A DNA stretch of 64,000 bases from the NCBI GenBank assembly GCA_964517125.1, contig CAZFBD010000006.1:27429-91428 (forward strand), given 5' to 3'. This document shows positions 2,393 through 44,583 of this stretch, one piece after another (the stretch's first letter is position 1; every line of letters begins with the position of its first letter). Under the pieces are notes generated by a model. That model was given only the letters and a program-made list of their open reading frames with translations, made no database searches and was not told the DNA's origin. Source of the stretch: an uncultured Acidimicrobiales bacterium. GTDB taxonomy: Bacteria; Actinomycetota; Acidimicrobiia; Acidimicrobiales; SHLQ01. A program made the translations under genes and the position numbers.

Positions 2393-2637
2393 TGACCGAT
2401 TTCAGCGTCTACGACCACCGATCTTCGGCTCCAACCTCAGACCCGGAACGAGACCTAGAGCGAGCCCTAGAGCGAATGGCCCTAGCTATTCGCGACCTCC
2501 AGGCGGCGGCTACCAGAAACCTCCCGCCTACCTTCCGATTCGTCATCGACTCCGAGACCGACACGGCCTACCTAGTCGACATCGTAAACAAGCGCCGAGC
2601 GGCGATAACCACAGCTAATTGGGAACCAACACCATGA
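2392..2637 (+). CDS. hypothetical protein
   Basis: Track ORF. ATG overlaps the upstream stop (TAATG). Confidence 0.6.
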   Translation: MTDFSVYDHRSSAPTSDPERDLERALERMALAIRDLQAAATRNLPPTFRFVIDSETDTAYLVDIVNKRRAAITTANWEPTP

Positions 2638-3638
2638 GCGACATTTCACTAGTAGATCCCGACTCGATCGGCTGTTGCGATCCGGAAGTAGATCCGGGCG
2701 ACGGCTATCCGGCCGAACCTCCCCCATGCACCTACGAGTCTTGCTCGATCGGCTTCTTGCCGATGACGGTTACGAGGGGAGCGCTCGGTGCCTACGTCCG
2801 GCTCTTCGGTCAATCCGGAGCGTCGAGCGAACGGCTACCCGAATCGTGCGACCCCGAAGACGAATGCGGTCTCCTCCGCTGCTACATCGACTCCGACGGC
2901 AAGAACCTCGGACTAGGTATCTCGCTCAAGGGAAGCCCGGCCGCTCTTGAAGTGGATTGCACCGACGAAGAGGGGAACGACCTCTACGTCAACGGGCTAA
3001 GGGCGATCAAGAACCCGGACGGATCATGCTCGCTCGGCACGCTCCCGATCCCGCTTCAAGGAAAGGTTTGCGTCGACGGCTCCGGCCAATGCACGACGAC
3101 CTTCCCTCCGGGCCAAGAGGGCGATGTCTTCGGATCGAGCGCGGACGGCGGTTGCGGTCCTAACCCTTGCGTCTCGCTGACCAACGAGGGTTGCTTCCCT
3201 ATGGTCGTGACTCCGAAGATTACGATCACGGGCGCTCGGCTCGGTCCCGGCGTTACCTACCAAATTCAGCCAAACGTTCAAGGTAACTTCGAAGACTCCT
3301 TCGACGCCTTCTCGAATAACGCCGGAGATTGCACCGTAAGCGACGCCGGAACCGGAGCTACCTCTTCGGCCGGAGACCCGGAGCACACCCACGAAGGGCC
3401 AAGCCATAGCCACACGGTGAATTGCAATGAGGGCGACCAGTCCTACTCGGGAACGATCGACCGACCGTTGATCCAGCTTGGGCCGGGCGAGACCTTGGAA
3501 TTCTGCGCTTCGGTATCTATTCGATACGACCGAGACAACGAGGGCGGCGGACTTCTCAACTTCGGAACCGTCAACGTTTGCCTCGACTACTCCAGCTTGG
3601 TAACGCCAGAAACTATCGCCGCGCTCGAAGGGAACTAA
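2634..3638 (+). CDS. Cys-rich structural protein (tail/fibre-type)
   Basis: Track ORF 2619..3638 trimmed to ATG 2634 (ATGA overlap with upstream stop). 18 Cys in 334 aa by hand count. His-rich patch GDPEHTHEGPSHSHT. Confidence 0.6.
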   Translation: MSDISLVDPDSIGCCDPEVDPGDGYPAEPPPCTYESCSIGFLPMTVTRGALGAYVRLFGQSGASSERLPESCDPEDECGLLRCYIDSDGKNLGLGISLKGSPAALEVDCTDEEGNDLYVNGLRAIKNPDGSCSLGTLPIPLQGKVCVDGSGQCTTTFPPGQEGDVFGSSADGGCGPNPCVSLTNEGCFPMVVTPKITITGARLGPGVTYQIQPNVQGNFEDSFDAFSNNAGDCTVSDAGTGATSSAGDPEHTHEGPSHSHTVNCNEGDQSYSGTIDRPLIQLGPGETLEFCASVSIRYDRDNEGGGLLNFGTVNVCLDYSSLVTPETIAALEGN

Positions 3639-3642
3639 GAAG

Positions 3643-10091: not shown

Positions 10092-10163
10092 GCACCTATG
10101 GCGAAGTGGAAACGCTGGGGCCTGCAAAGCCTCGATGCGAAGGTTCGATTCCTTCTAGGTGCT
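10092..10163 (+). tRNA. tRNA-Cys: tRNA-Cys (anticodon GCA)
   Basis: Hand-folded cloverleaf. Acceptor GCACCTA/TAGGTGC (7 bp). D arm GCG/CGC with an A.A mismatch and a GG in the loop. Anticodon stem GGGGC/GCCTC, loop CTGCAAA. 5-nt variable loop. T arm GAAGG-TTCGATT-CCTTC. Discriminator T (U73), the known CysRS identity base. No encoded CCA. Confidence 0.9.
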
Positions 10164-10410
10164 CTGGAAAGGTTTGGAGATGAGATTCTTAATAGCTTGG
10201 AGCTACTACCGGGAGCAGATGAAGGACTACCCGAATACGCCGAAGGCGCAAGCCCGTCTCTGGGCATGGCGTCGAGCGGGCTTGTAGGGGCGAAGCTAGA
10301 GTAGGTACCGACTAGCGGCCCGAGTCTCCCCCCCCAATCCTTCGATCGAGGAGATACAAGAACCCATGAGCCTGGCGAAACCTCCATTCAGATGAGGCGG
10401 CAAGAAGAAG

Positions 10411-14920: not shown

Positions 14921-15118
14921 ATGAAGACGTACGGAGAACTCGCTAAGTCGGACACCTTCCTGGTATTCGACATCGCAAGCGGAACCAACATTGCGACCAA
15001 GGTGACGGCCGCTCTCCACGCCGAAGGAATCGTGAACCTCGCGGTTCAGTTCCCAGGCAGGGAAGGGGCAACGTTCCTCGGAAGGTTCCCGGCCGATCGA
15101 GAGATCAAGACCTACTAG
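14921..15118 (+). CDS. hypothetical protein, leaderless
   Basis: Track ORF. ATG 6 nt after the -10. Confidence 0.65.
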   Translation: MKTYGELAKSDTFLVFDIASGTNIATKVTAALHAEGIVNLAVQFPGREGATFLGRFPADREIKTY

Positions 15119-15147
15119 GGGAGATACGAAAGCCAACTGAATAGGAA

Positions 15148-15330
15148 TCGAGCAGCTAGCCGAGAGCTGGTAGCGCGGGCTCCGAACCTTCGTCGAGAAG
15201 GGGACCGTTAGAAGCGGCTGGGATAAGAACCCCAGGGACACGGTAGGACTGGCCTCAATGCGAGGGCGCTAACCCCAAGCGAATCGACTGGACACGAGAG
15301 ACGGATTCGGGCTCTCGGCTAGCTTCTCGA
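15148..15330 (+). ncRNA. candidate structured RNA / complex 3' element closed by a long-range stem
   Basis: AGCTAGCCGAGAGC (15154-15167) pairs perfectly with GCTCTCGGCTAGCT (15311-15324). TCGAG/CTCGA extend the stem past 1-nt bulges. The 143-nt interior holds several small hairpins (CCTTC-GTCGA-GAAGG, CTGGG..CCCAG). No ORF and no family assignment. Confidence 0.3.
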
Positions 15331-15340
15331 ATAAATTCCT

Positions 15341-15378
15341 AAATAGGGGTTGACGTAATGCCGAGGGCTAGGCATACT
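15341..15378 (+). promoter_or_regulatory. conserved extended promoter
   Basis: aaatAGGGG-TTGACG(15350-15355)-17 nt-CATACT-7 nt-ATG 15386. Confidence 0.7.
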
Positions 15379-15385
15379 TGTATAC

Positions 15386-15613
15386 ATGAACGACATCAAA
15401 GAAATTGGAACCATCCTCTGGATCGACCTCTCGACTGTGAATGAAATCTCAGTCGGCCACGACTTCGAAGAAGGCGACTTCTGGGTAGTCGTCGACGGAA
15501 CTTTCATCGACGTAGACGACTCGGTCGCCGCCGAGATCTTCGCCGGTATGGAGCTGCTCGAAGCGTACCGAGCCGAAGAGGGCGACGTCGTAGAGCTTTC
15601 CTACTCCCTCTAA
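15386..15613 (+). CDS. hypothetical acidic protein, leaderless
   Basis: Track ORF. ATG 7 nt after the -10. Confidence 0.65.
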   Translation: MNDIKEIGTILWIDLSTVNEISVGHDFEEGDFWVVVDGTFIDVDDSVAAEIFAGMELLEAYRAEEGDVVELSYSL

Positions 15614-15628
15614 ATCTCCCCCCAACGC

Positions 15629-15668
15629 AAGAAGCCCGTCTAGTCGCTACAGACCGGACGGGCTTCTT
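15629..15668. terminator. hairpin terminator (12-bp perfect stem)
   Basis: AAGAAGCCCGTC ... GACGGGCTTCTT, 15 nt after the stop at 15613. Sits at the boundary with the convergent minus-strand block. Confidence 0.6.
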
Positions 15669-15686
15669 CGCGCTTAGGATTCGGTT

Positions 15687-15851
15687 ATGGGATGCGTCAA
15701 CGGAAGCGACTGCAAGGCCGTCGATCGAGACGGACCCCTTACCCCTGACGGCCTCTGTAGCGTTTGCGTAGCTCGGCTCCCGGTGGACCCTTCGGTGCTC
15801 GCCTCCGCCGAGATTGAGATAGGCCAGCTACTCGACGAGCTAGGGCTTTAG
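15687..15851 (+). CDS. possible small Cys-containing protein (54 aa)
   Basis: Not in the track. ATG 15687 translates MGCVNGSDCKAVDRDGPLTPDGLCSVCVARL... Weak ribosome site, located after a terminator, and overlaps the 3' end of the convergent gene by 4 nt. Confidence 0.3.
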   Translation: MGCVNGSDCKAVDRDGPLTPDGLCSVCVARLPVDPSVLASAEIEIGQLLDELGL

Positions 15852-16285
15852 GTCGAGAGGTTCGCCGCGTGACGATGAAGCGTTTGGAGCCCGTTAAGGA
15901 CGGCCTCTAGAGCGTTGACGGCGTCCCTCTTCGAGCGAAATAGCTGGAGACTGATTTGCCACGAGAGGTAGAGATCCGAAGCTTCCAGGTCGGCGACGGC
16001 CTTGCGGCTCGACTCGGTATGGCGGATCGCCGGAGGATCTCCTTCTCCCGGCTCGACGACGGCGAAGGTCGAGAGGAAGGCCGTAGCGTGGGCTTTCTTG
16101 TAGTCGTTGTCCGCCTCAGCGGTCGCCCTCGCTAGAGGTTCTAGCTCCTTGATCTCCTTACGAAGATCTCGGGCGACGCTAGCGATCCAGCCAGACAAGA
16201 CCGTCGGATTCGAAAGGTGCTGGCTTAGATCTTCGTCGACGTTGAGTTGGTCGAGTACGGCGGCCGTAGCTCCGCTACTGGTCAT
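15848..16285 (-). CDS. hypothetical helical protein
   Basis: Track ORF. AGGAGA ribosome site on the minus strand. Confidence 0.6.
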   Translation of the reverse strand: MTSSGATAAVLDQLNVDEDLSQHLSNPTVLSGWIASVARDLRKEIKELEPLARATAEADNDYKKAHATAFLSTFAVVEPGEGDPPAIRHTESSRKAVADLEASDLYLSWQISLQLFRSKRDAVNALEAVLNGLQTLHRHAANLST

Positions 16286-16440
16286 GGTTTCTCCTATCGG
16301 GAAGGTTCGATTCTTTGAACGGGCAATTGCCTCGCTTGCATCCTCCGAACCCGGCCGGACGGCAAGCCGAGCAGCGGGGATGCGAGCAGCTGATGCAAGT
16401 CCCTTGAGCGCCCGTTACTCGGGCGAGGGATATGGCGGCG

Positions 16441-17019
16441 CTAGTCGAGTTCATCAGGCCCCTTAGCTTTCTCGACGACGGCTCCTCTTAGCTGGAGGAT
16501 CGATAGCTCCGGAGCGCCAGTCGTACCCTCTTCCTCGGAACCGAAGAACTCGGTTTCAGCGCTCGGCGGCTCCTCGACCTCTTCGGGCTCGTCGTCGTCC
16601 GGGATGAACATCTTGAAGAGAGCTACCAAGACGCTAACGAGGAGACCCCAAACGTTAAGGGAGAGCGAGGTAAGAAGGTCGACGAATCGCCACTCCCACG
16701 GGAACGCTCCGATCGTCCAGCCGAAGACGAAGAAGCTAATCCACTGACCGACGCATAGCGGGCAAGTCCAAAGGCGGTGGAGCCAGTGGGCGAAGAGCTG
16801 GAGGCCATACGGGTAGTAGCGGAAGTCGCTCGCTTGCTCGACGTCCTCGCCGGGACGAAACCCTAGCTGTAGCGAGTCGATGATATTCGAAAGCCAGCGC
16901 TCGACGGGAGCGTGAATCGCGTCGAGTACCGACTCACAAACGAAGTACCGGGCTCCGGCGAAGATGCCGAGAGAGAGTACCAACCACTCGAAAGGTTCTA
17001 GGGCTAGGTCAAGATTCAA
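16441..17019 (-). CDS. membrane protein, DUF1360-like
   Basis: Track ORF. Multiple hydrophobic segments and the CPLCVGQW motif I associate with DUF1360. Acidic C-terminal tail. Confidence 0.55.
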   Translation of the reverse strand: MNLDLALEPFEWLVLSLGIFAGARYFVCESVLDAIHAPVERWLSNIIDSLQLGFRPGEDVEQASDFRYYPYGLQLFAHWLHRLWTCPLCVGQWISFFVFGWTIGAFPWEWRFVDLLTSLSLNVWGLLVSVLVALFKMFIPDDDEPEEVEEPPSAETEFFGSEEEGTTGAPELSILQLRGAVVEKAKGPDELD

Positions 17020-17728
17020 TGCAATCCAATTCTGCTAGTTGGGTTAGATGGTCGAGGTCGGAACGTCTCATCACGGCGAGCTTTACGTCGGACCCTTCTC
17101 CTTCGCCCCAAGATAGAGCGAGAGCGGCCGGGCCTCCCGAGCGGTCGGCTCGGGTCGAGACTTCGGCGAACTTGGCTTGAACCTTCTCGCCGCTCCACCA
17201 CTTACGGATTACGGATAAGTCGTCGCTCATAACCGAGTACGAGGCGACCTTCCCCGGCGAGTCCTCTTTGGCGTGGTTAATCATCACGATCAGATCGTCG
17301 ATCGGCACGAGAGCGATTACGTCGTCTCGCCAGACCCGAGGAGTTGCCCCTAGTACCGAAGGAAGATCGGCGAGCGGAGCCCACTTCGAAGGTACGCGAA
17401 TGTAGTCGAATTGCTCGGTCTCTTCGAAGTACATCCGGCAAGTCCGAAGCTCTACGGTTACGTCGGCTCCTCCGCCTCTCGCTCCGGAGAGGGCGACCCT
17501 TCGACCCTTGATCGACTTGGCGAAGCGAAGCTCTCGGCGGTTGGCTCGACCCTTGATCGAAGATCCCCTGCAAGCTCGACATTTGTTCTTGTCGCAATTG
17601 CGGGTATGGACCTTCCCGTCCTTCCACTTCTTCGGCTTGCCTCCCTTCATCCGAGGGAGCCCTTTCCTTCCGCAGCCACAGCCACAAGTGACGTGTTCCT
17701 TCGGCGGTTTGAGTAGTTCTCCAGCCAT
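17009..17728 (-). CDS. zinc-ribbon protein, function unknown
   Basis: Track ORF 17009..17812 trimmed to ATG 17728 (GGAAGGA ribosome site, 2 nt after the upstream stop). N-terminal CGCGCG...NCDKNKCRAC cluster. A PD-(D/E)xK-like nuclease core was considered but its lysine is not evident. Confidence 0.55.
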   Translation of the reverse strand: MAGELLKPPKEHVTCGCGCGRKGLPRMKGGKPKKWKDGKVHTRNCDKNKCRACRGSSIKGRANRRELRFAKSIKGRRVALSGARGGGADVTVELRTCRMYFEETEQFDYIRVPSKWAPLADLPSVLGATPRVWRDDVIALVPIDDLIVMINHAKEDSPGKVASYSVMSDDLSVIRKWWSGEKVQAKFAEVSTRADRSGGPAALALSWGEGEGSDVKLAVMRRSDLDHLTQLAELDCIES

Positions 17729-17730
17729 AG

Positions 17731-18030
17731 CTAAATCCTTCCGGGATTGAATTGTGCGACGGTCTTCCAAGCGTCTTCGGGCGGCATGACTTCGTTCCCC
17801 CACTGAATGCAAAGCGTCTTAGCTTCGAGTTCAGGAATCCAATACGGCGCTCGGGAGTGGGGCTCTACGAGCGGGAACTTTGGGCTCTCTCGAAAGGCGA
17901 CTTGGGAGAGGTACGTCTCGCTGCACCAACGCCTCCAGGTCTCGTCCGGTATCACGGCTCCGTTTGCTCGCAGATGCTTGAGTAGTTGAGCGGCCTTGAT
18001 AGCGACTATTCGTTGAGTCATCGGGGCCAC
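17731..18030 (-). CDS. hypothetical protein
   Basis: Track ORF, with GTG 18030 or ATG 18021 as start. First gene of the minus-strand block. Confidence 0.55.
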   Translation of the reverse strand: MAPMTQRIVAIKAAQLLKHLRANGAVIPDETWRRWCSETYLSQVAFRESPKFPLVEPHSRAPYWIPELEAKTLCIQWGNEVMPPEDAWKTVAQFNPGRI

Positions 18031-18124
18031 CTTACTACATAACCCCTGAAACCCCCACCCTATACAGATCGTCCGGAGCCGCTGATAACATCGAAGTCCT
18101 TCCCTTAGCTAGAAAGGTCCTACA

Positions 18125-18814
18125 TTGAGTGGTTGGGCGAATAGGATCGTCGGCTTTGAGCCGGAGGTAAAACCGTCGGAGTTGATCCCTCATCCGAGGA
18201 ACCCAAGACTCCACGGCGATAACCAGCGGGCGGCGATGGGCGAGACGCTGGCTTCGATCGGCTGGACTACGCCGGTAATCGCCAACCAGAAGACCAACCG
18301 GATAATCGACGGCCACATGCGAGTCGAAGAGGCCGCAGCAAACGGCGAGACCGTTCCGGTTATGTGGGTCCATCTGAATACCGAGGAAGAAGAGCACGCA
18401 GCCCTTGCGACCCTCGATCCGTTAGCGCTCATGGCTACCTTCGACGATCAGATCTTGACCGATCTAGTCGAGATAACTGACTCGGTGCCGAGCGGAGTTA
18501 GCGACCTCCTGGCCCAGATAGCGAACTACGATCCTGTCGAAGAACTCGAAGAGATAGCCGGGAGGGTTCCCGCTCCGGTCGCCGACCTGCCGATGCCGGA
18601 GGTCGACCTAACGTCGAGAGGCTCAGAGATCTCGGTCCCGAATCCGGCCGAACGGCGCGACGCCTGGGCTGAGGCCGGAGTGCGTTCGATTATCCTCCCC
18701 TTCGACGCCGATACCTACAAGCTAGTGGTCGAGTCCTTCGCCGAAGCTCGGGAGCGCTTGGGCGTCGACTCCAATGCCGAAGTGGTAGTGAGTCTTCTCG
18801 GCGTGGAGCAATGA
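18125..18814 (+). CDS. ParB-like N-terminal (ParB/Srx) domain protein
   Basis: Track ORF, TTG start with GAAAGG upstream. Motifs IPHPRNPRLH and IIDGHMRVEEAAANGETVPV. Confidence 0.7.
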   Translation: MSGWANRIVGFEPEVKPSELIPHPRNPRLHGDNQRAAMGETLASIGWTTPVIANQKTNRIIDGHMRVEEAAANGETVPVMWVHLNTEEEEHAALATLDPLALMATFDDQILTDLVEITDSVPSGVSDLLAQIANYDPVEELEEIAGRVPAPVADLPMPEVDLTSRGSEISVPNPAERRDAWAEAGVRSIILPFDADTYKLVVESFAEARERLGVDSNAEVVVSLLGVEQ

Positions 18815-19641
18815 AAGAGATCGAGGTCTCTCGATCCGACTTCAAGCCGGTACGAGGGGAAGCCGAATACGCGGAACCTCCAGGTAAAGACTCCGTCGTC
18901 TTGACGGATCATCTCGGCATCGACGCCGAGACGGGCTGTCCGGTGATAGCTCATTCGACGGTTGACTTCGGCGAGATCGGCGAAGCTCTCTTCGAGTGGG
19001 CTCCGCATATGCCTTGGAAGGGCGAGGGCTCCTCCAAGAACGAAGTCCGACTCTCCGGTATCAATAACGCTCACGTCATCTTCGGCTATGCGGCCCCGGT
19101 CCCTATGCGTCGGCGATGGGCGGCTTCCTCTACGGCTTTCAACCGGGAGTATCCGAAGGCGGCTTACGCCTTGGAAGTCCTCGCCGCCCAGTGCTCTGAT
19201 TGGTTCGAGGCCAACCTTCCCGAAGCGTATGAGAATCACCTACAAGCTATCGACGGTCTTCACGACGGTTGGAAGCTAGCCGGGCGAGCGCCTTGGACTT
19301 CCGGGATCATCAACAAGTCGGCAGCCCTCCGCTACCACCGGGACTCCGGGAACTCCGTAGGATCCTGGTCCGCGATGATCGTTATGAGGAAGGGCGTCGG
19401 CGGCGGGCTCCTCCACGTAAGAGACCTTGACGTCTACCTAGCGTGCGACCACATGAGCCTTTCGATCTTCGACGGACAGGCCCTAACCCACGGCGTTACT
19501 CCGCTGGTCCATAGCGAGGACCCCGAAGAGATTCGGATATCGATCGTCTTCTACACCAAGACCGGAATCGTTAGGGCCGAAGCTCCGGGAGACGAGATAA
19601 TTCGCGGGCAGATCCGAGCATCGAGGGGCATCGAAGAATGA
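18811..19641 (+). CDS. 2OG-Fe(II) dioxygenase, TET/JBP-like
   Basis: ATGA overlap. Motifs YHRDSGN (HxD), LTHGVTPL (second His) and RISIVFY (RxS 2OG arginine), in the order and spacing of double-stranded beta-helix dioxygenases. The wording resembles TET catalytic cores as I recall them. Confidence 0.7.
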   Translation: MKEIEVSRSDFKPVRGEAEYAEPPGKDSVVLTDHLGIDAETGCPVIAHSTVDFGEIGEALFEWAPHMPWKGEGSSKNEVRLSGINNAHVIFGYAAPVPMRRRWAASSTAFNREYPKAAYALEVLAAQCSDWFEANLPEAYENHLQAIDGLHDGWKLAGRAPWTSGIINKSAALRYHRDSGNSVGSWSAMIVMRKGVGGGLLHVRDLDVYLACDHMSLSIFDGQALTHGVTPLVHSEDPEEIRISIVFYTKTGIVRAEAPGDEIIRGQIRASRGIEE

Positions 19642-20558
19642 CGATCCTTGAGGAAGCGGGAGCGCTCGGAGAAGACTTCGTCGCCTTCGGAACCGTTCAC
19701 CGAGAGACGAGAGACATCGATCCGATCTACCCGGTGATGCGACATCTCTTCGTCTTCGCTCCTCACCTCTTCCCTACCGAGCGCTCAAGGGTCGAGTTCA
19801 CCTTCGCTTACGTGACTTGGTACAACCTCCCGACGGCCCTCTCGCTTTGGGTCCAAGGGTTCCGCTTCTCCGACACAAAGATCGGCGAGGTCGACTACTG
19901 GCCGACCGGCGTAGAGCGTCGAGGCCATCGCAACCCGGCCGCCACAAACGCTCACATCGACTCGCTCCGTAGTCTCGATGACGCCTTCTCCAACGGCCTT
20001 CTAGGTTGGCTCTCTTCGGGCCAGCAAGAGGACCCCTTCGAGGAGTGGAGGCGACTGCAAGAGGTCTTGGTCGAGCCGTGGGGCAACGGTCGATGGGCCG
20101 CTTTCAAGACGGGCGAGGTCTTGATCGAGGCGAACAACTGGAAAGCGGAGCCGACCGACGCGGGGCATAAGAACTCAACCGGCCCTCGAAGAGGTCTGGC
20201 CGACCTCGCTCCGCAAACCGTCGGCTACTCGATAGCGGAACTAGACCTAATCACCGAAGAGCTTCGCCTCGATATGGAGGAGCAAACCGGTGAGCGCTGG
20301 AGGGTCGCCGAGATCGAGACGGTCCTATGCGACTTCCATTCGATGAGGAAGGGCGGCTACTACGTCGGTCACGACATCGACTTACTCCTCGCTCAACTAG
20401 GCGGCGAGAGGGTCGATCAGGTAGCTCGGAATCTCATCCTCAACGCTCGGTCGCATTGCTTCCCGAGTTGGCTTCTCGGCGAGATGCAAGGTTGGGATGG
20501 GGTTCGGCGAGATCTCAAGAAGCTCTATCGAGACGACGGAGGTATCGGCTGGTGGTAG
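19638..20558 (+). CDS. hypothetical protein, possibly aGPT-Pplase-like DNA base-modification transferase
   Basis: ATGA overlap. Motifs WGNGRWAAFKTGE and ETVLCDFHSMRKGGYYVGHD. The family assignment rests on context and weak recollection only. Confidence 0.6.
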   Translation: MTILEEAGALGEDFVAFGTVHRETRDIDPIYPVMRHLFVFAPHLFPTERSRVEFTFAYVTWYNLPTALSLWVQGFRFSDTKIGEVDYWPTGVERRGHRNPAATNAHIDSLRSLDDAFSNGLLGWLSSGQQEDPFEEWRRLQEVLVEPWGNGRWAAFKTGEVLIEANNWKAEPTDAGHKNSTGPRRGLADLAPQTVGYSIAELDLITEELRLDMEEQTGERWRVAEIETVLCDFHSMRKGGYYVGHDIDLLLAQLGGERVDQVARNLILNARSHCFPSWLLGEMQGWDGVRRDLKKLYRDDGGIGWW

Positions 20559-21424
20559 TAGTCGAAGGAATGGGCTGGCTCGGCGTTGTCGCCGGGCGGA
20601 TACTCGACGAGCTGGGCGTCGACTGGTGTTGGTATGACACCGACTCGCCGGTCCAATCCTGGAGAGCGTCGACCGGGATCGTCTATCCCGGAGGCGATGA
20701 GATGGACCGTTCTAACTACGATCGGTGGATCGCCGAACTCGCCGAAGGGCGATGGATCGACGATGCGGTAGAGCCGGTCGAGTTCTGGTTTGCTCACCTC
20801 AACCCTCCACACGGCGGCAAGTACTCCCTCTCGGCTGACCTTGGGTCTATCCGGCGCGGATCCCTCCCGGCCGTGATGGTCAACGTTCCGGAGGTCGTCG
20901 CTCGGCACCGAGAGCTATGGGCTGATCGTCGAGTAGAACCGAGGCAGCCCGACGTAATCGCCCACGGCTTCCGAGGGCGGATCGTTAGATGGGTCTGGGG
21001 CTACTCGGTAAAGGTTCGGCTTGAGTTCTCCGATGAGCTTCGTAACGCTTCGGAGTCCGGAAGGCTTTCTCTCTACGGCCGAGACGGTCGTTTCAAGATC
21101 GTCTATGCCCACCTAGGAGCCGGTAGCGATTACTGGCGAGTCGGCTCGTCTTTGATAAGTCAGAAGGTCCCGAAGGAGCTAGACGCCGGGAAGCACTTCG
21201 ATTCTTGCCGAGCATCCTTCGAGAAACTCTTCGGAGATCACGCTCAAATTGTCGAGCAGCTTGAAGAGCCGGTTCACGGCTGGAGGCCGAAGCGTTCCGA
21301 CGAAGACGACGACCGCTGTATCGTCGATCCAACCGGCGTTATCCACTTCCCTTCGGTCGCCTACTCCGGCGTTCGCTGGACGCCTTCGATCGCCGATTCG
21401 TTCCGAGAGGTAATACCGAGATGA
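20552..21424 (+). CDS. FAD-dependent oxidoreductase (DAO/glycine-oxidase-like)
   Basis: Track ORF 20327..21424 trimmed to GTG 20552 (GGAGG 9 nt upstream, 7-nt overlap with upstream gene). N-terminus VVVEGMGWLGVVAGRILDELGVDWCWYD is a Rossmann GxGxxG..D fold. C-terminal motif is HGWRPKRSDED..P.G. Confidence 0.6.
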   Translation: MVVVEGMGWLGVVAGRILDELGVDWCWYDTDSPVQSWRASTGIVYPGGDEMDRSNYDRWIAELAEGRWIDDAVEPVEFWFAHLNPPHGGKYSLSADLGSIRRGSLPAVMVNVPEVVARHRELWADRRVEPRQPDVIAHGFRGRIVRWVWGYSVKVRLEFSDELRNASESGRLSLYGRDGRFKIVYAHLGAGSDYWRVGSSLISQKVPKELDAGKHFDSCRASFEKLFGDHAQIVEQLEEPVHGWRPKRSDEDDDRCIVDPTGVIHFPSVAYSGVRWTPSIADSFREVIPR

Positions 21425-21936
21425 TCTTCGTCCACCTAATGGGAGTCCCTGGAGCCGGGAAGTCGACGGCCGTCCGCAAAGCTCTAGCCAATACCGAGCG
21501 GATCGAGCTAGACGTAGGCGCTCCCTTCGCCGTAGAGACCTTCGCTTACGAGGGCAAGACCATCGCCCATCTAGGTTCAACCGAGGGCGAGTATCCGGGA
21601 ACCGACCGACTCTCGATGGCGGTCTCACCTCAAGTCGTAGCGTGGCTCGCCGGAGGTCCGCCCGTTGACGTAGTCCTCTCCGAGGGGGACCGGTTGACGT
21701 CGAGGAAGTTCTTCGACCAAGCCGACAAGATCGGCGTCGAGCTTCGAGTAGTACTCCTCGCCGTCTCCGAAGAGGTCGCCCAACAGCGCCGAGATAAGCG
21801 AGGCTCGAACCAGAGCGCGACTTGGCTCAAGGGTCGGACGTCTAAAGTAGGCAACCTCGCCGATCGAGTAACGAGAAGGATTGGCACCCTAGAGCGAGCG
21901 GACAAGGTTCTACTAGAGGAGCTAAGCCGTGAGTGA
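21421..21936 (+). CDS. P-loop kinase-like protein
   Basis: ATGA overlap. Walker A HLMGVPGAGKST within a 171-aa kinase-sized protein. Confidence 0.65.
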   Translation: MIFVHLMGVPGAGKSTAVRKALANTERIELDVGAPFAVETFAYEGKTIAHLGSTEGEYPGTDRLSMAVSPQVVAWLAGGPPVDVVLSEGDRLTSRKFFDQADKIGVELRVVLLAVSEEVAQQRRDKRGSNQSATWLKGRTSKVGNLADRVTRRIGTLERADKVLLEELSRE

Positions 21937-22312
21937 ACAACTCATCCGAGTTTGGCTCGCCGGGGCCGAAGCCGCCGATGCGGCCGAAGTCCTAGGCGTT
22001 GACATCGAAGAATACGACCGGGCCGTTAGTAGCTTCCTGGCCAACGAGAGCGAGACCACTTCGGGGGACCGAGTCGGCCTGCAGCTCGCCGAGATCACCG
22101 CTTCGCGCCAAGCTCTTCGCCGTCTAATCTCTTCGCCGTCCACGGCTCCGGCCGACGTCGTGAGAGCCGTGCTCGCCCTCTTCCGGGCTCACGACCAAGA
22201 GGCGAAGGTAATCGGCTCGCTCCACCACGACCCTCAAGCCCGAGTCGCCAAAGACTCCGTAGCCTCGCGCCCCTTCGGCTCGATCCTGGCGACGATTGGC
22301 TCGGACATCTAG
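21929..22312 (+). CDS. putative terminase small subunit (HTH protein)
   Basis: Track ORF, GTG start overlapping the upstream end. N-terminal HTH-like AADAAEVLGVDIEEYDRAV. Lies immediately upstream of terL. Confidence 0.45.
   Translation: MSEQLIRVWLAGAEAADAAEVLGVDIEEYDRAVSSFLANESETTSGDRVGLQLAEITASRQALRRLISSPSTAPADVVRAVLALFRAHDQEAKVIGSLHHDPQARVAKDSVASRPFGSILATIGSDI
22286..22298 (+). promoter_or_regulatory. CTGGCGAC(C)GATTG motif, copy 1 of 3 (upstream of terL)
   Basis: CTGGCGACGATTG 16 nt before ATG 22315. Related copies precede the portal gene and gene 55422. Confidence 0.3.
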
Positions 22313-22314
22313 CC

Positions 22315-23856
22315 ATGTCCGGCGCTCCGGATACCCGACCTCCCGAGCTACTAGAAGGACTACCGGTACCCGACGAGACCTCGGTCGAAGCCGTCAGCAC
22401 TGAAGGACTATCCCCTAGGGAGCACGAGCTAGCCGTACGGATCAACGCTCTTGAGGAATACTCCGACGTCGAGAAGTGGGTTCTATTCCGACTCGCCAAG
22501 TGGCGACATATCGACGCTCGACCCGAGCAACTTATGCCGGTCGACGCTCAATACTTCTTCGCTGTGGGAGGTCGCGGGTCCGGCAAGACGAGAGCCGGAT
22601 CCCAAACCCTCTTCGAATGGGCATGGGAGTTGCCCGGTACCCGCTGGGCTTGCGTCGGACCGACCAGGCTCGCCGTTCGAAATCTAATGTTCCTCGGTCC
22701 GTCGGGTCTTCGAAACGTCATCCCGGATCAAGCTCTCGAAACGGGCGACTGGGACGGCTCCTTCAATGAGACTCGCCTAGAGCTTCGCCTAGCGAACGGC
22801 TCGGTCATTACCGGCTACTCCTCCGAGCGTCCCGGTCGAATCCGAGGCGACAACCTTTCGGGATTCTGGGGAGACGAGCCAGCCGAGTGGAAGGACTCAA
22901 GCCAACTCCCGCTCGAACTCAACACGACGTTCTCAAACCTTATGCTCGCCGTCCGGGAGAATACCGAAGGCGGTACGCGAGGGATCATCACCGGGACTCC
23001 TACGCCCTGCCCGCTTCTCGCCGGTAACGCCCAACACGAGATCCCCGGCCTCCTCACGGGGATGCAAGAACCTCCAATGACGGTCGTCCGCATGTCGACT
23101 CGGGACAATCTAGAGAATCTCGACGCGAGCTTTACCCGGCTCATCATGTCGCTCGAAGGAACTCGCCTTGGTCGCCAAGAGATCGATGCCGAACTTCTTA
23201 CCGATATCGAAGGAGCGGCTTGGAAGAACCATTGGATAGTCGTCGACGACACGGGCCTAACGCTCCAATTCGACCGCATGGTAATCGCCGTCGACCCTTC
23301 TGGTAGCGACGGCCAAGGCGACGGAGACGAAGTAGGCATCGTCGTTTGTGGGCTTTCTGACGGCCAGTACTGGGTACTCGAAGACCTCTCGGGAGGATGG
23401 GGGCCAGGCGAGTGGAGCGAATTGGTATGGGACGCTTACAAGCGATGGGAGCCGCAGTCCTACCGGGCTCCGCATATCAAGGTCGAAGGCAACTACGGGA
23501 AAGAGCTAGCGGCTCAACCTCTCCGGGTAAGCCAAGACCGAGTTCCCGGAATCGACATCGACATCAAGCCGGTACGCGGGTCGAAGTATCAACGGGCGAA
23601 AGCAACCGCCCAGATCTACGAGCCGACGTTGCAGAAGGCCACAGGCGTACGAGTCCGTCACGCCGGGCGCTTCCACCTCCTGACTAGCGAGATGACTACC
23701 TTCTTGCCCGAGAGCGGTTGGTCGCCGAACCGAATGGACGCTCTTACGCTCGGGATGAATTGGCTCGCCGAATTCGACGAACTACCTCAAGTAGCCGGGA
23801 GCCACGGGACCACCCTCGGCACGCTCCTCGGTCGTCACTCAGGCGGGTATCGCTAG
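22315..23856 (+). CDS. terL: terminase large subunit
   Basis: 513-aa track ORF. Walker A GGRGSGKTR, Walker B-like FWGDEPAEW, and nuclease-domain acidic motifs (VIAVDPSGSD). Confidence 0.85.
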   Translation: MSGAPDTRPPELLEGLPVPDETSVEAVSTEGLSPREHELAVRINALEEYSDVEKWVLFRLAKWRHIDARPEQLMPVDAQYFFAVGGRGSGKTRAGSQTLFEWAWELPGTRWACVGPTRLAVRNLMFLGPSGLRNVIPDQALETGDWDGSFNETRLELRLANGSVITGYSSERPGRIRGDNLSGFWGDEPAEWKDSSQLPLELNTTFSNLMLAVRENTEGGTRGIITGTPTPCPLLAGNAQHEIPGLLTGMQEPPMTVVRMSTRDNLENLDASFTRLIMSLEGTRLGRQEIDAELLTDIEGAAWKNHWIVVDDTGLTLQFDRMVIAVDPSGSDGQGDGDEVGIVVCGLSDGQYWVLEDLSGGWGPGEWSELVWDAYKRWEPQSYRAPHIKVEGNYGKELAAQPLRVSQDRVPGIDIDIKPVRGSKYQRAKATAQIYEPTLQKATGVRVRHAGRFHLLTSEMTTFLPESGWSPNRMDALTLGMNWLAEFDELPQVAGSHGTTLGTLLGRHSGGYR

Positions 23857-24095
23857 CCGACCGTTACGCCAAGGTCCTTGGCCAAAGCGGCAAGGAGGGC
23901 GTATGCGTCGGCCTCTGGGATCTCAATAGCGGTAGCCTGTTGCCCGTCTCCGCCGATCTCGACCGTCACCCGACCCTTGTAGCCGTAGTCCTCGGTATTA
24001 CCTTCGGCCTGAACCGTTATCTCTAGGTAGGAGAATTCGCCGGTCTTCTGGCCGCCTGGGGTTTCTTCGGTCTGGTTGTACTCGTAGGTGCTCAT
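23853..24095 (-). CDS. hypothetical acidic protein, leaderless
   Basis: Track ORF. ATG 6 nt after the -10 of a minus-strand promoter. Its stop overlaps the terL stop within the GCTAGC palindrome. Confidence 0.6.
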   Translation of the reverse strand: MSTYEYNQTEETPGGQKTGEFSYLEITVQAEGNTEDYGYKGRVTVEIGGDGQQATAIEIPEADAYALLAALAKDLGVTVG

Positions 24096-24101
24096 GGGGC
24101 A

Positions 24102-24135
24102 ACCATAATCCGCCTTCGGTATTAAAGCAACCCCT
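24102..24135 (-). promoter_or_regulatory. conserved-type promoter (minus strand)
   Basis: Reverse complement reads cAGGGG-TTGCTT-17 nt-TATGGT-6 nt-ATG 24095. Confidence 0.6.
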
Positions 24136-24137
24136 GA

Positions 24138-24473
24138 TTACTTATTTAGTCCGGAGAGCAGGAGGGTCACGATCTTCTTTACGTCGGCATCTTCGTAGAT
24201 GAGGAACATCGCCCCTTCGGGTCCGTGTTGCCCGTCGAGTCCCGGATCGAGGTTCACCGGGTAAGAGGCTCCGGTCTCCGCCATCTCCTGAAACCGCTCG
24301 ATCATTTGGGCGGTACTATCCGCCTCAACTTCGTTGAAGACCTTCGTATCGAAGTCGGTCCCGGCCGTCATGCCTTTGACTCGCAACGGGCCGACGTTCC
24401 AAAGCCCGAGGATCTCGGCGAAGACGGTTCCTTTCTCAAGCTCCAGGAATTCAGGACGGCGGCATATTCTCAT
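24138..24473 (-). CDS. hypothetical protein
   Basis: Track ORF. TATGAT lies 6 nt upstream of the ATG on the minus strand, suggesting a leaderless start. Confidence 0.6.
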   Translation of the reverse strand: MRICRRPEFLELEKGTVFAEILGLWNVGPLRVKGMTAGTDFDTKVFNEVEADSTAQMIERFQEMAETGASYPVNLDPGLDGQHGPEGAMFLIYEDADVKKIVTLLLSGLNK

Positions 24474-24508
24474 GGCTCGATCATAGCCCTAGATACGTAA
24501 AGGCTAGG

Positions 24509-24796
24509 ATGGTCCTTATGGATCACGAGCTACCGCCCGGCCACGTCTACCGATACTCCGCTTCGCCCGAGATCGACTTGGAAGGCCGACCTACCGGTTA
24601 CGTGGCATGGGTTAAGAGGCCCGAGCGGATAGGCACTTGGAAGCACCGCGCTCTGGCTCTAGAGAAAGCTCGGGAGAAAGCGAAGCTAAGAGGCGAGATC
24701 TACGCTCCGATAAAGCTCCGCTCCTCTTACGTCCGTCAGGACATGAGTCCGCATAAAGTGAGTTCATGGCAAGACCTTCCGGCTCAAGCCGGGTAA
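24509..24796 (+). CDS. hypothetical protein
   Basis: Track ORF. An alternative start at ATG 24518 lies 7 nt after a TAGGAT -10-like hexamer. Confidence 0.55.
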   Translation: MVLMDHELPPGHVYRYSASPEIDLEGRPTGYVAWVKRPERIGTWKHRALALEKAREKAKLRGEIYAPIKLRSSYVRQDMSPHKVSSWQDLPAQAG

Positions 24797-24972
24797 CTCC
24801 GAAGAAGAATACGGGCGCTAGACCGTCGGGCTCGGTAGCCCTCCCTGGCTCCACCAAGAATGTTCGGTGGTGCGAGGGCCATAAAGCCTTCCACCCGGTC
24901 AACCCGAAGCCGAAGTCAAAGCGTAAGCCGGTCGTCCTCCAGTCCAAGCCGGAACCGGACGAGCCGTCCTAA
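24766..24972 (+). CDS. hypothetical basic protein
   Basis: Track ORF with high GC3. Overlaps the upstream gene by 31 nt. Contains RWCEGHKAFH. Confidence 0.4.
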   Translation: MARPSGSSRVTPKKNTGARPSGSVALPGSTKNVRWCEGHKAFHPVNPKPKSKRKPVVLQSKPEPDEPS

Positions 24973-25078
24973 CGTTCCGATGACGACCGAGTCAAGACGG
25001 TAGCCTGAATCTCCAAAGCGGAACTACTCTTCCTTACGGGCTAGCGGCCATTCGACCCTTCGTAGTAGAGGTTCTGTA

Positions 25079-25290: not shown

Positions 25291-25521
25291 ATGCTTTATG
25301 TAGGGATGTCGACGATGTTCGCTCTCTTCGTCCTACTGGGCTTCCCGGTAGGAGTCGGAATCGGCTGGACGATACGAAGGGTCCGGGTCCAACGATCCGA
25401 CCACCCCGGCTACTCGTGCGTCGAGGCCGTCGAGATTATCGAGGGCCTAACCCTCGATCGGAATCCGGTCCCGGTTGAACATCGAGACCTAGCTTGGACG
25501 CACCGAGTAGCTCTCGGTTAG
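25291..25521 (+). CDS. small membrane protein (paralogue B)
   Basis: Track ORF 25204..25521 trimmed to ATG 25291. One TM segment (MFALFVLLGFPVGVGIGWTI), then DHPGYSCVEAVEIIEGL. Same architecture as 25079..25285. Confidence 0.55.
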   Translation: MLYVGMSTMFALFVLLGFPVGVGIGWTIRRVRVQRSDHPGYSCVEAVEIIEGLTLDRNPVPVEHRDLAWTHRVALG

Positions 25522-26089
25522 AAATTTCTTTGAAGTATTTATCCCACTAGCCAAGAGGTCTGAGGGCGCTAGGGGATCGGAGGGAAGCGAGAGGGGACTA
25601 GCTTTCTCGCGCCCGTCGAGGCATAGTTGTCGACCAACGCTCCGCGACAACCGAGAGATCCCCTACCGTACGGGATCGGCCAGAACGGAATAACTGGCTC
25701 AACAAACCCCCTGCCGACACAAGTGGGAACTAAGCGGCCACCGAGTGAGTGAGCAAGTAAAGAGGGCAGAGGCCCTTGGACACTCCGACGATCGAGACCG
25801 GGTAACCTGCGGCCGTCGGCGATCGGTTCTTCGGAACCCATCGGGAGCGAGTGAGTCACACTTACGCCCTTCGATTTGAGGGGAGAGGTTGAATGGTCCT
25901 CTCCCTTGGCTGCGAAGGATTCGTAAGGTTCACAGAACGGATCGGTTCACCTCAGCGTTGCCCCTTGATTAGCGAAAGCGACGAGCGACGGGTAATACCG
26001 AAGGTCTAGCGTTCCAAGGTCTAGGTTTGTTCTACTGCAAGAGCACACCTAGCCCTGACGCTCTGCTCAGGGCTCTGGGTAATCCCTGA

Positions 26090-26182
26090 CGGTCGGCGTC
26101 TTCTAAGAGGGTGGGGCCGCCCCAGCGGCCTCAAGCGTCAGCTGATGGATGAAATCCATCCCCTCTTAGAAGACGCCGACCG
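26090..26182. repeat. 22-bp perfect inverted repeat enclosing two sub-hairpins
   Basis: CGGTCGGCGTCTTCTAAGAGGG (26090-26111) and CCCTCTTAGAAGACGCCGACCG (26161-26182). The 49-nt loop contains TGGGGC-CG-CCCCA and GATGGAT-GAA-ATCCATC. Confidence 0.85.
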
Positions 26183-26263
26183 ACGATGAATTGGGCATGA
26201 GTCTAATACCCGCTGTCAAGAGGGGAGGATAGGGAGAGTATAGACCAGCCCTAGGGTTAAATC

Positions 26264-26318
26264 AATAGGGGATATAAGTAATTACTAGTTGACTCATAGG
26301 GTAAAGACGGACTAAAGT
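26264..26318 (+). promoter_or_regulatory. promoter with split upstream element
   Basis: aATAGGGGatataaGTAATTACtag-TTGACT(26289-26294)-18 nt-TAAAGT. Leader of about 30 nt, then GAAGGG and ATG 26355. Confidence 0.5.
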
Positions 26319-26354
26319 ACTAGGTAAGAAGCAGTCATCGAGAAGGGTATTCAG

Positions 26355-27402: not shown

Positions 27403-27960
27403 ATGACGTCTTTGCTTCTCCTGATTCGTCGCCTCTTCGTAGGCTTCGAAGTCGACTCAGTACTAACCGTCGAGCGCCAGACCTACGGCGTCGACGCGAT
27501 TTACTCCGACGGCGAGCGAGTCCACGTCGTCCCCCTATGCGCAGCCTCTTTCGAAACGGCTCACCCGGTTGACGTACGAAGGGCGAGAGGTCTAGAGAAT
27601 TGCGAGCATTGTCTCCCGGATCCTCCCGGCTTGCTGACCTTCGATAAGGAAGGGATCTCCCGAGCGGAGATGGTGAACCGAACGACCGAGTTCTACCGAG
27701 CCCGAGCTATCCGGGTCGAGCAAGAGAGGATGGTCCGAGAGCGGATCGTCGCACCAAACCTCGATCCCGGCCTCATCGCCCGGATCCGTCAGGCGGAGGC
27801 AACCCTAAACGAACTCCCGCTCGACCTTCGAGGGCTCACCGATCAACAAGCCCAAGCCCAAGCTCATCGACTAGAGACCGAGGTAGCGAAGATGCTGCGA
27901 GCGGCCGAAGAGGAGTGGGACCGAGAACTACGAGACGGACCCCGAAAGGACCACCGATGA
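27403..27960 (+). CDS. hypothetical protein
   Basis: Track ORF. C-terminal half looks helical / coiled-coil. Confidence 0.55.
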   Translation: MTSLLLLIRRLFVGFEVDSVLTVERQTYGVDAIYSDGERVHVVPLCAASFETAHPVDVRRARGLENCEHCLPDPPGLLTFDKEGISRAEMVNRTTEFYRARAIRVEQERMVRERIVAPNLDPGLIARIRQAEATLNELPLDLRGLTDQQAQAQAHRLETEVAKMLRAAEEEWDRELRDGPRKDHR

Positions 27961-28769
27961 TTCAAGAAACGGAACTAAGCGAAGGCGAGCAGATCGTCAC
28001 GCAAATCAAACCGCACTGGTACTTCTTCGCTAGCCGGATCCTTCTCTACATAGTCGGGATGATCCTCATGGTTGGAGCCCTCCTACTCCCCGGCAACGTC
28101 GGCGGCTGGATTGCTCTCGCTATCGCCCTATGGCTCGTAGTAACGATCGGCTGGCGAGCCCTCGAATGGCACGCGACGACCTTCGTAATCACGACCGACC
28201 GAATCATGTCTCGCTCCGGCGTACTCACTAGAACCGGAATCGAGATCGCTCTTGAGTCGATCGTCAACGTCCGATTCTCCCAGTCGATAACCGAACGGCT
28301 CGTAGGAGCCGGAGACATCTCGGTCGAGTCGGCCAACGATTCGGGCTCGACCAAGTTCGACGACATCAAGAACCCGAAGCACATTCAAGCCCTTATCCAC
28401 CGGACCAAAGAGCAGAACGTCGAGACGAAACGAGACTTCGCCTCCCTCGACGCGACGAAGGTCCAGGTCCCCGGCGACATCGCAATCGGCGCTCCTCTCC
28501 CGAAGAGTTCCTCGCCGAAAGTCAAAGGCGCTCCTCCCGTCCCTACCGAGGACTGGCGAGCGAAGGTACCGGTTCCGAGGGTCGTCTCTAAAGACGAGGA
28601 TCCGACCGACGAGGTAGAGATCCCGATCGAGACGATGCGACCAGCTACGAAACCTCGATCCCTTTCGGAGAAGATTCGAGAGATCGCCGCCCTTCGGGAT
28701 GAGGGAGTAATCAACCAACAAGACTTCGAACGGATGAGCCGAGAGCTGATCCAGAATGACGGGAGCTGA
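27957..28769 (+). CDS. membrane-flanked bacterial PH (bPH_2/YdbT-like) domain protein with C-terminal SHOCT-like motif
   Basis: Track ORF 27915..28769 trimmed to ATG 27957 (ATGA overlap). Two TM segments followed by FVITTDRIMSRSGVLTR..., with C-terminal IAALRDEGVINQQDFERMSRELI. Confidence 0.6.
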   Translation: MIQETELSEGEQIVTQIKPHWYFFASRILLYIVGMILMVGALLLPGNVGGWIALAIALWLVVTIGWRALEWHATTFVITTDRIMSRSGVLTRTGIEIALESIVNVRFSQSITERLVGAGDISVESANDSGSTKFDDIKNPKHIQALIHRTKEQNVETKRDFASLDATKVQVPGDIAIGAPLPKSSSPKVKGAPPVPTEDWRAKVPVPRVVSKDEDPTDEVEIPIETMRPATKPRSLSEKIREIAALRDEGVINQQDFERMSRELIQNDGS

Positions 28770-43950: not shown

Positions 43951-44284
43951 CACAGGGAACGTATTAGTCGAAGGGACCTACCGAGTATCACAGTGGCTTG
44001 GTTCGTCGTCGGGCGGTCGTCACGGGATCCCCTGCTTTCTCCGGCTCGGAGGTAGAGACCTGAACCCGTCGATGTACGGATTCAATCCGGAAGAACTCTT
44101 CGGCCATCGACTCGCCGAAGGAACCAAGATCCTAGTTACTATCGAGGTCGTCGAGGAAGGTCCCGAGCTTCTTCAAACTAGTTTCCCGCCGTCGAGCTTC
44201 CGCGGTGGAATCAAGGCGTGGAACGAGCTACCGGCCGCCGAGCAAACCTCCCTCTGGGACGGGCACGAAGCGGGTAGGTCGTGA
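43940..44284 (+). CDS. hypothetical protein
   Basis: Track ORF, 11-nt overlap. Confidence 0.55.
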   Translation: MPSDTGNVLVEGTYRVSQWLGSSSGGRHGIPCFLRLGGRDLNPSMYGFNPEELFGHRLAEGTKILVTIEVVEEGPELLQTSFPPSSFRGGIKAWNELPAAEQTSLWDGHEAGRS

Positions 44285-44583
44285 CCGTCTACGTAGACCA
44301 ACTAGTCGAGTGGGGCTGGATGCTTCGAGGCGTCAAGACGTCGAGTTGCCATATGGTCGCCGATACCGACGAAGAGCTTCACGCTATGGCGCAAGCGATC
44401 GGACTCAAGAAGTCTTGGGCTCAGAAGATGAATAGCGCCAACCAGTACCGTCGGCACTACGACCTCACTCCCAGGAAGCGAGCGCTAGCCGTCGACGCCG
44501 GAGCCGTACAGATGACGCTCCGGGACTTCGGTCGCCTAATCAAGAAGGGGCAAATCGATGCGGCAAATCGACGTAGTGTTTGA
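44281..44583 (+). CDS. DUF4031-like protein
   Basis: Track ORF, GTGA overlap. VYVDQL..W....CHMVADTDEELHAMAQAIGLKKSW......HYDL matches my memory of the DUF4031 consensus. Confidence 0.6.
   Translation: MTVYVDQLVEWGWMLRGVKTSSCHMVADTDEELHAMAQAIGLKKSWAQKMNSANQYRRHYDLTPRKRALAVDAGAVQMTLRDFGRLIKKGQIDAANRRSV

Follow-up and report, generated by a model that had tools for sequence, protein, structure and literature searches.

What does a small TET-like dioxygenase do in the genome of an uncultivated virus, and on which base does it act? The question is raised by a 64,000-nt stretch of DNA (hereafter the window; positions 27,429 to 91,428 of contig CAZFBD010000006.1 in GenBank assembly GCA_964517125.1, filed under an uncultured Acidimicrobiales bacterium), in which an open reading frame (ORF) at 18811..19641 of the + strand encodes, from ATG to stop, a protein of 276 amino acids. 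An earlier note, written from the sequence without database searches, had recognized in this ORF the motifs of TET/JBP enzymes and had favored thymine over 5-methylcytosine (5mC) as the substrate. Taken together, family, fold, operon structure, synteny, and the literature lead us to regard the protein as a likely phage thymine dioxygenase, itself likely assisted by a ParB-like partner, that would start the conversion of thymine to a bulky modified base in phage DNA. The source is a large, uncultivated virus, probably actinobacterial.

Family and fold of the dioxygenase

The GC content of the ORF by codon position (0.62/0.46/0.70) follows the coding pattern of the adjacent genes. Tet_JBP (PF12851) was the sole Pfam family that the protein matched, over residues 112-250 (E=4.1e-10; 39.6 bits, the gathering score being 34.9), so that the alignment to a TET/JBP profile model suggested in the earlier note came out above threshold; no 2OG-FeII_Oxy family gave a Pfam match at E<=1. 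In a large protein database 28 relatives were found besides the protein itself, all but one of them (27/28) carrying PF12851. Throughout the alignment (28 sequences, 33-50% identity) residues H176, D178, N181, H227, and R242 and a WTSG block at 162-165 were invariant. H176 (19336-19338), D178 (19342-19344), and H227 (19489-19491), all on the + strand, are the HxD...H iron ligands of the superfamily and R242 (19534-19536, +) is its 2-oxoglutarate (2OG) arginine; the active-site residues are thus intact. They lie in two blocks, LRYHRDSGNSVGSW (residues 173-186, nt 19327-19368) and QALTHGVTPLVHSEDPEEIRISIVFYTK (residues 223-250, nt 19477-19560), which are the two TET/JBP-type motifs of the earlier note.

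A single-sequence phmmer search of the PDB returned chance matches only, and a profile was therefore needed to reach TET2. The best solved-structure match of a profile built from 29 homologs was human TET2 (E=0.011), with HGVTP...R-S-VFY of the dioxygenase aligned onto HATTPL...RISLVFY of TET2. This reproduces one part of the line-up with animal TET enzymes given in the earlier note, namely the H..TP and R-S-VFY strings. For the other part, the HRD..N string, support comes from the Pfam envelope, the invariance of its residues, and the fold match rather than from a residue-by-residue alignment.

The AlphaFold2 model computed with the family alignment was of high confidence (predicted local distance difference test, pLDDT, 92.1; predicted template modeling score, pTM, 0.90). 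When it was compared with the PDB using Foldseek, ranks 1-26 were all TET-type (E 1e-11 to 7e-10), among them Coprinopsis CcTet, human TET2, Naegleria NgTET1, and Chlamydomonas CMD1. A generic 2OG oxygenase, either an AlkB-like repair enzyme or a protein hydroxylase, with no role in modified bases would have the double-stranded beta-helix fold and the HxD...H motif too, both being common to all of these enzymes, and AlkB and ALKBH3 are indeed in the Foldseek list; however, they enter it at E=2e-6, below every one of the 26 TET-type matches and about 1e5-fold weaker. With TET-family enzymes as the top structural matches and Tet_JBP as the sole Pfam family, the outcome that the earlier note had set against its own claim, best matches to AlkB-type enzymes or to prolyl/lysyl hydroxylases, did not occur. 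Contradicted by both the profile and the fold searches, and at odds with a gene context of DNA hypermodification, a generic oxygenase is exceedingly unlikely. Pfam, the invariant residues, the model with its Foldseek matches, and the profile match to the PDB make it virtually certain that the ORF belongs to the TET/JBP family of Fe(II)/2OG 5-methylpyrimidine dioxygenases (5mYOX).

Nucleotide comparison (megablast) of positions 15000-25000 with phage genomes gave no match. At the protein level, tblastn of the dioxygenase against phage genomes gave 100 records with matches of 31-37% identity, from phages of Mycobacterium, Microbacterium, Gordonia, Arthrobacter, and Rhodococcus. In those records the gene is annotated as 'oxidoreductase', 'Tet-like J-binding protein', 'thymidine hydroxylase', and in some, wrongly, as 'queuine tRNA-ribosyltransferase'. 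The last label, which the family also bears in PHROG and RefSeq (phrog_6059; e.g. NC_022061.1, NC_047987.1), was rejected as a propagated misannotation.

An operon built around the dioxygenase

Seven genes on the + strand occupy 18125-23856, their starts and stops overlapping by 4-8 nt or separated by a 2-nt gap, and the dioxygenase is the second of them. Judged from this arrangement, it is co-transcribed and translationally coupled with genes for a ParB-like protein, an amino-acid:DNA transferase (AADT), a flavin adenine dinucleotide (FAD) protein, and a kinase. Promoter and terminator scans around the operon did no better than on shuffled sequence, and NCBIfam yielded nothing useful for any protein of the cassette.

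The first gene (18125..18814, +; 229 aa) encodes the ParB-like protein, the predicted activator of the dioxygenase; its stop codon overlaps the dioxygenase start (ATGA). ParB_N gave no Pfam match at E<=1, so identification required PHROGs and a profile search of the PDB. The protein matched PHROG ParB-like families at 7e-21 to 8e-18, and a profile of five ParB-like proteins matched the N-domains (CTPase) of Noc, ParB, and Spo0J over residues 1-93 (3e-6 to 1e-3); beyond residue 93 the same profile found no match in the PDB, a helix-turn-helix (HTH) included. End to end, the protein aligns with the one encoded upstream of the dioxygenase in a metagenomic virus, L002 (E=6e-20; loci used for comparison carry L numbers), and with gp1 of Mycobacterium phage Prince, and by alignment its C-terminal block is conserved among dioxygenase partners. 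As read from the sequence, the architecture is an N-terminal ParB/Noc-type nucleotide-binding domain, a linker, and a conserved C-terminal region, with no recognizable HTH.

A ParB-like gene lies directly upstream of the homologous dioxygenase in L001, L002, L003/L004, L009, L011, L012, L013, and L017; the call was based on Pfam ParB_N or annotation in six of these loci, on alignment in L002, and on position only in L017. The ParB gene is downstream of the dioxygenase in L014, and L015 has no gene with a Pfam ParB label. Such pairs have a known counterpart: in clade C1, a large subset of the phage 5mYOXs (e.g. 5mYOX176/ParB176), the dioxygenase gene adjoins that of a ParB homolog, which has nucleotide-binding and C-terminal domains but no DNA-binding domain and on which the activity toward double-stranded DNA depends (O'Toole et al., PNAS 2026, PMC13229309). 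The ParB-dependent enzymes also bear a C-terminal extension that is absent from ParB-independent ones (PMC13229309). Our model ends in a confident C-terminal helix (residues 259-275) after the last core strand, with E262, A266, and T271 conserved among the homologs, a candidate counterpart of that extension. By analogy with clade C1, we lean toward a dioxygenase whose activity depends on the ParB-like protein.

The third gene (19638..20558, +; 306 aa) encodes the AADT (formerly aGPT-Pplase), which matched Pfam ADDT (PF18724) above threshold at 1.1e-11. It aligns over its full length with gp46 of Pseudomonas phage PaMx11 (24% identity, E=4e-7), a glycine transferase whose structure has been solved along with that of gp47 (Wen et al., NAR 2024, PMC11472151), and its Cys231 (20328-20330), within ETxLC, falls on the catalytic Cys247 of gp46. 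Its matches in the PDB were the glycinyltransferase 8z2m and an 'amino acid:DNA transferase', and it is 36-39% identical to the 'aGPT-Pplase2 domain protein' of Gordonia and Rhodococcus phages.

The fourth gene (20552..21424, +) is the least familiar. We read it as 290 aa from GTG 20552, in preference to an alternative ATG at 20570, because its homologs begin with IHIEGMGWLG, which contains the GxGxxG dinucleotide-binding motif (20567-20584, +). The protein had no match in Pfam, PHROG, or NCBIfam, but its AlphaFold2 model (pLDDT 92.6) matched D-amino-acid oxidase, iminodiacetate oxidase, sarcosine oxidase, and glycine oxidase in Foldseek (1.6e-10 to 1e-5), which points to an FAD-dependent amine-oxidase-like protein. 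Its family has no Pfam model, and the members in cultured phages bear the label 'hypothetical'. With 215 clusters at E<=1e-3 and 189 at E<=1e-30, out of 1.84 billion representatives, it is a small family with sharp limits, in which EGMGWxG and the beta2 Asp are invariant or nearly so. At all five other places examined the family shares a locus, within a few kb, with ADDT and Ploopntkinase3 genes. In BFVD the model matched the oxidoreductase gp4 of Mycobacterium phage Phelemich, from the same gene slot, and other small phage FAD oxidoreductases; hhalign found no significant full-length homology between the family and Phelemich gp4. A tblastn search of phage genomes with the protein returned no Pseudomonas phage. 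By analogy with other systems, the product is predicted to be a tailoring enzyme that acts on an amino-acid adduct.

The fifth gene (21421..21936, +; 171 aa) encodes a P-loop kinase of the 5-hydroxymethyluracil (5hmU) DNA kinase type, which matched Pfam Ploopntkinase3 (PF18751) above threshold at 1.5e-17 and has an intact P-loop (Walker A, GVPGAGKST, 21442-21468, +). The homologous slot in Gordonia phage Wooper is annotated '5-hmU DNA kinase'. The label 'terminase small subunit' that phrog_800 attaches to the kinase was discarded as a propagated misannotation. The next gene (21929..22312, +), translationally coupled to the kinase before it and to the terminase after it, encodes a 127-aa protein that is placed by position only and had no match in Pfam, PHROGs, or NCBIfam; it is possibly a small terminase subunit, and its membership of the modification module is uncertain. 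The terminase large subunit (22315..23856, +; Pfam Terminase_6N 3.9e-10, PHROG 1.4e-20) marks the end of the cassette.

This gene order is conserved. Genes 1-6 of Phelemich stand in exactly the order of the window (ParB-like, dioxygenase, AADT, oxidoreductase, kinase, terminase), Wooper carries these five modification genes too, with the kinase ahead of the FAD gene, and the gene set is followed by a terminase in Prince, Wooper, Phelemich, L002, L003, and L012. Elsewhere the genes downstream of homologous dioxygenases vary: ADDT, PALP-like, and kinase genes; a kinase alone; a cytidylyltransferase-like gene; or a TET-associated glycosyltransferase. In L002, a freshwater viral contig whose dioxygenase is 40% identical to ours, the cassette reads ParB / Tet_JBP / ADDT / PALP-like / kinase. 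We considered whether the FAD protein might be a homolog of the PALP-like protein in that slot and found no homology between them; the fourth slot is therefore variable.

Two further loci deserve mention in their own right. In Streptomyces sp. DSM 42041 (L014, JAVREQ010000001.1) the ADDT/kinase/FAD-like set, with Tet_JBP and ParB_N, is found beside genes for PTPS and GTP cyclohydrolase I, and on a 68-kb viral contig (L016) the ADDT/kinase/FAD-like set is beside DpdA and a Vut_1 transporter. Thymidine modification may therefore go together with 7-deazaguanine modification of DNA in some elements.

Substrate and predicted pathway

Oxidation of 5mC presupposes an enzyme that makes it. To look for one, 105 ORFs of the window were picked by codon-position bias, translated, and scanned against Pfam; none matched DNA_methylase (PF00145), and none was a thymidylate-synthase-like dUMP hydroxymethylase or a glycosyltransferase. 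A PCQ-type motif was likewise absent from all six frames of the window, in keeping with the earlier statement that no C5-cytosine methyltransferase is visible there. The proteins of the window were found again on the 103,542-bp JGI contig Ga0401115_000073 (JGI 3300039175), where 10 kb to the right (L006) and 6.4 kb to the left (L007) could be covered; the precomputed Pfam lists of these flanks, ~16 kb in all, do not contain PF00145. The search of the wider genome that had been proposed is thus answered in the negative for the flanks, with ~23 kb of the contig outside its coverage. The earlier note had also named a DPPY-type enzyme as the only methyltransferase of the window. The motif is there, as SVYDPPYQ at nt 54041 in an ORF at 53726-54421 (+), with a possible S-adenosylmethionine motif I, VIDWTYGLGDF, ~50 residues upstream, but the ORF matched nothing in Pfam, NCBIfam, PHROG, or solved structures, and so it encodes either a very divergent N6A/N4C methyltransferase or no methyltransferase at all.

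The absence of such a gene is informative in the light of recent work, in which phage TET/JBP enzymes without a neighboring C5-methyltransferase proved to be thymine dioxygenases (PMC13229309). [quoted passage not shown] Sharing an operon with a ParB-like protein, a kinase, an AADT, and an FAD enzyme, the present dioxygenase most likely begins the modification of thymines in the DNA of the phage itself. The argument for thymine rests mostly on these neighboring genes, which the earlier note left unmentioned; its preference for thymine over 5mC stands, and thymine is probably the natural substrate and the starting point of a hypermodification pathway.

The competing explanation is a 5mC dioxygenase, of the kind found among phage TETs (Burke et al. 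2021), that acts on 5mC supplied by a distant C5-methyltransferase or by that of the host, with the downstream enzymes decorating the resulting 5-hydroxymethylcytosine (5hmC). Superfamily and fold are common to our protein and to 5mC dioxygenases and do not separate the two; but the phage 5mC dioxygenases adjoin a C5-methyltransferase and are without ParB (PMC13229309), no such methyltransferase was found in the window or the covered flanks, and the families of the downstream kinase and AADT are known only to act on 5hmU in DNA (PMC8989533). A 5mC dioxygenase is, on this evidence, improbable.

Several points nevertheless weigh against the thymine reading as a whole, and the first three of them lend the 5mC explanation what strength it has. 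The characterized phage thymine dioxygenases oxidize 5mC too, in vitro (PMC13229309). The uncovered part of the 103.5-kb source contig lies outside the methyltransferase search. In L002 a C5 DNA_methylase domain is present in a protein of 818 aa encoded at 2545-5001, which is 3 kb upstream of the cassette, so that absence of a C5-methyltransferase is not universal in this clade of dioxygenases. The closest database relative of our dioxygenase is only 50% identical to it, and its substrate is one that we infer; the likeness to 5mYOX176 and 97 is by described features, not by sequence or clade placement. Further along the pathway, the cassette showed neither an acetyltransferase nor any other enzyme for a finishing step. 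Finally, hhalign aligned the FAD family with PaMx11 gp47 over 36 N-terminal (Rossmann) columns only, at a probability of 19%; lacking full-length homology, the FAD protein is classed as a functional analog of gp47 and not as a member of its family.

With thymine as the substrate, the predicted order of events is as follows: the dioxygenase would hydroxylate the 5-methyl group of some thymines in polymerized, replicated phage DNA to give 5hmU, probably needing the ParB-like protein to act on double-stranded DNA. Next, the P-loop kinase would phosphorylate 5hmU to 5-phosphomethyl-deoxyuridine (5-phosphomethyl-dU). The AADT would then replace the phosphate by a free amino acid, with Cys231 as the catalytic nucleophile. 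Finally, by analogy with PaMx11 gp46/gp47, the FAD amine-oxidase-like enzyme may oxidize the C-N bond of the adduct, hydrolysis of which would leave 5-aminomethyl-dU or a related base. Such a modification would be expected to shield the phage genome from host nucleases. Only the first steps of this pathway are well supported; the last is an analogy and is the weak point, and an aminomethyl-type final base is accordingly offered as a tentative suggestion.

The pathway might also stop early, with 5hmU or a simple phosphorylated form of it as the end product and the AADT and FAD genes otherwise employed or inactive. Some relatives, such as L011, have ParB, dioxygenase, and kinase only, and the FAD protein has no sequence homology to the characterized lyase. 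Yet the AADT here keeps its catalytic Cys in a full-length alignment with gp46, the FAD motifs are invariant in a family that accompanies ADDT and kinase genes at every locus examined, and the genes are translationally coupled, which leaves a slim chance for so short a route. Returning to the full pathway from thymine, a bolder version of it, which we hold to be doubtful, is that the FAD family was recruited independently of the PaMx11 flavin lyase and, with the AADT, processes a non-glycine adduct, in which case this virus and its Gordonia and Rhodococcus relatives may carry a chemically undescribed thymidine hypermodification that is started post-replication by a ParB-assisted dioxygenase.

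This kind of system was already described between 2021 and 2026, and the cassette is a divergent addition to it, at most 50% identical to database sequences and joining the recently defined ParB-assisted phage thymine dioxygenases. What it offers is a complete predicted pathway, acting after replication and encoded in a single, tightly coupled operon, that leads from unmodified thymine to a base derived from an amino acid. A small addition is an annotation for the fifth, so far 'hypothetical', gene of the actinophage cassette, whose product can now be called an FAD amine-oxidase-like tailoring enzyme. To our knowledge, the modified base of Phelemich, Reprobate, Wooper, or Tonitrus has in no case been chemically identified so far; the FAD assignment makes the DNA chemistry of these cultured relatives directly testable. 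Such bases are relevant to the resistance of phages to restriction and to enzymes for DNA-modification mapping.

Elsewhere in the window and its contig, other features were recorded. The first 25 kb of the window have almost no Pfam matches; they include two large cysteine-rich proteins, at 3643-6291 (882 aa) and 2619-3638 (339 aa), which are probably tail or receptor-binding proteins, and a single tRNA-Cys(GCA) at 10092-10164. Positions 25520-26354 form a stretch of ~0.85 kb without a convincing ORF or an Rfam match, inside which a perfect 22-nt inverted repeat (26090-26111 / 26161-26182, 49 nt apart) was found; the stretch may serve as a regulatory region, as an origin, or as a terminator. 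Assigned genes further to the right encode a membrane protein with a bacterial PH domain (27915-28769), a DUF4031 protein (44281-44583), a ChlI/ComM-like domain protein (51730-52248), an Amidase_2 endolysin candidate (57014-57748), and an RNase T-like 3'-5' exonuclease (63101-63658). About 2.5 kb past the right end of the window (L006 12495-14135) a 546-aa Ro60-like RNA-binding protein with TROVE and vWA_Ro60 domains is encoded, followed by a DHHA1-domain protein.

Comparison with known systems

The trypanosomatid enzymes JBP1 and JBP2 are large, multidomain eukaryotic thymidine hydroxylases that act alone, and their product is glucosylated to base J. Our dioxygenase shares with them its superfamily, a predicted conversion of thymine to 5hmU within DNA, and a later decoration of the hydroxyl; unlike them, it is a stand-alone domain of 276 aa that has a ParB-like protein as its partner, and the decoration predicted here consists of phosphate first and of an amino acid afterwards.

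Its best structural matches are to the group of TET2, NgTET1, and the phage 5mC dioxygenases, with which HxD...H...R and HGVTP / R-x-S-x-V-F-Y line up. The phage members of that group (clades A/B) are encoded beside a C5-methyltransferase and, usually, glycosyltransferases (Burke et al. 2021, PMC8256090), whereas neither family is present in the window.

For the later steps the closest parallel is PaMx11 gp46-gp49, the pathway to 5-acetylaminomethyl-dU. The steps catalyzed by 5-hmU DNA kinase, AADT, pyridoxal-phosphate (PLP), radical-SAM, and flavin-lyase enzymes have been reconstituted, and the same study noted gene clusters where the hydroxyl acceptor comes from a Tet/JBP enzyme (Lee et al., NAR 2021, PMC8989533). 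In PaMx11, gp47 is a 286-aa FAD enzyme, N-alpha-glycinylthymidine oxidase (NGTO), that yields 5-aminomethyl-dU and glyoxylate (PMC11472151). Both systems have, side by side, homologous AADTs with the catalytic Cys and an FAD enzyme of ~290 aa, with a 5-hmU DNA kinase in addition; the two FAD enzymes are of the same glycine-oxidase-like (GR2) fold class with an FAD Rossmann motif. They differ at either end: PaMx11 makes 5hmU before replication, by a thymidylate-synthase-like enzyme, where a dioxygenase route is predicted here, and it goes on to use an acetyltransferase.

The cassette as a whole most resembles that of the actinophages (genes 1-5 of Phelemich and Reprobate, genes 1-5 of Wooper, and Tonitrus), with five gene families beside a terminase at 31-39% identity. 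In Rhodococcus phage Tonitrus the first five genes have been described as a thymidine hypermodification system, the fifth of them 'hypothetical' (PMC11955845). The Phelemich oxidoreductase is of a different sequence family from our FAD protein but has the same fold. The actinophage cassettes lie at the left end of genomes of 57-71 kb, whereas this one is inside a contig of ~103 kb from an uncultivated virus.

For the dioxygenase itself the comparison leads back to clade C1. The flavin enzyme sets the present cassette apart, none being mentioned among the neighbors in the text of PMC13229309. The two agree in having a TET/JBP domain, a ParB-like gene immediately upstream, no adjacent C5-methyltransferase, and a linked kinase and AADT.

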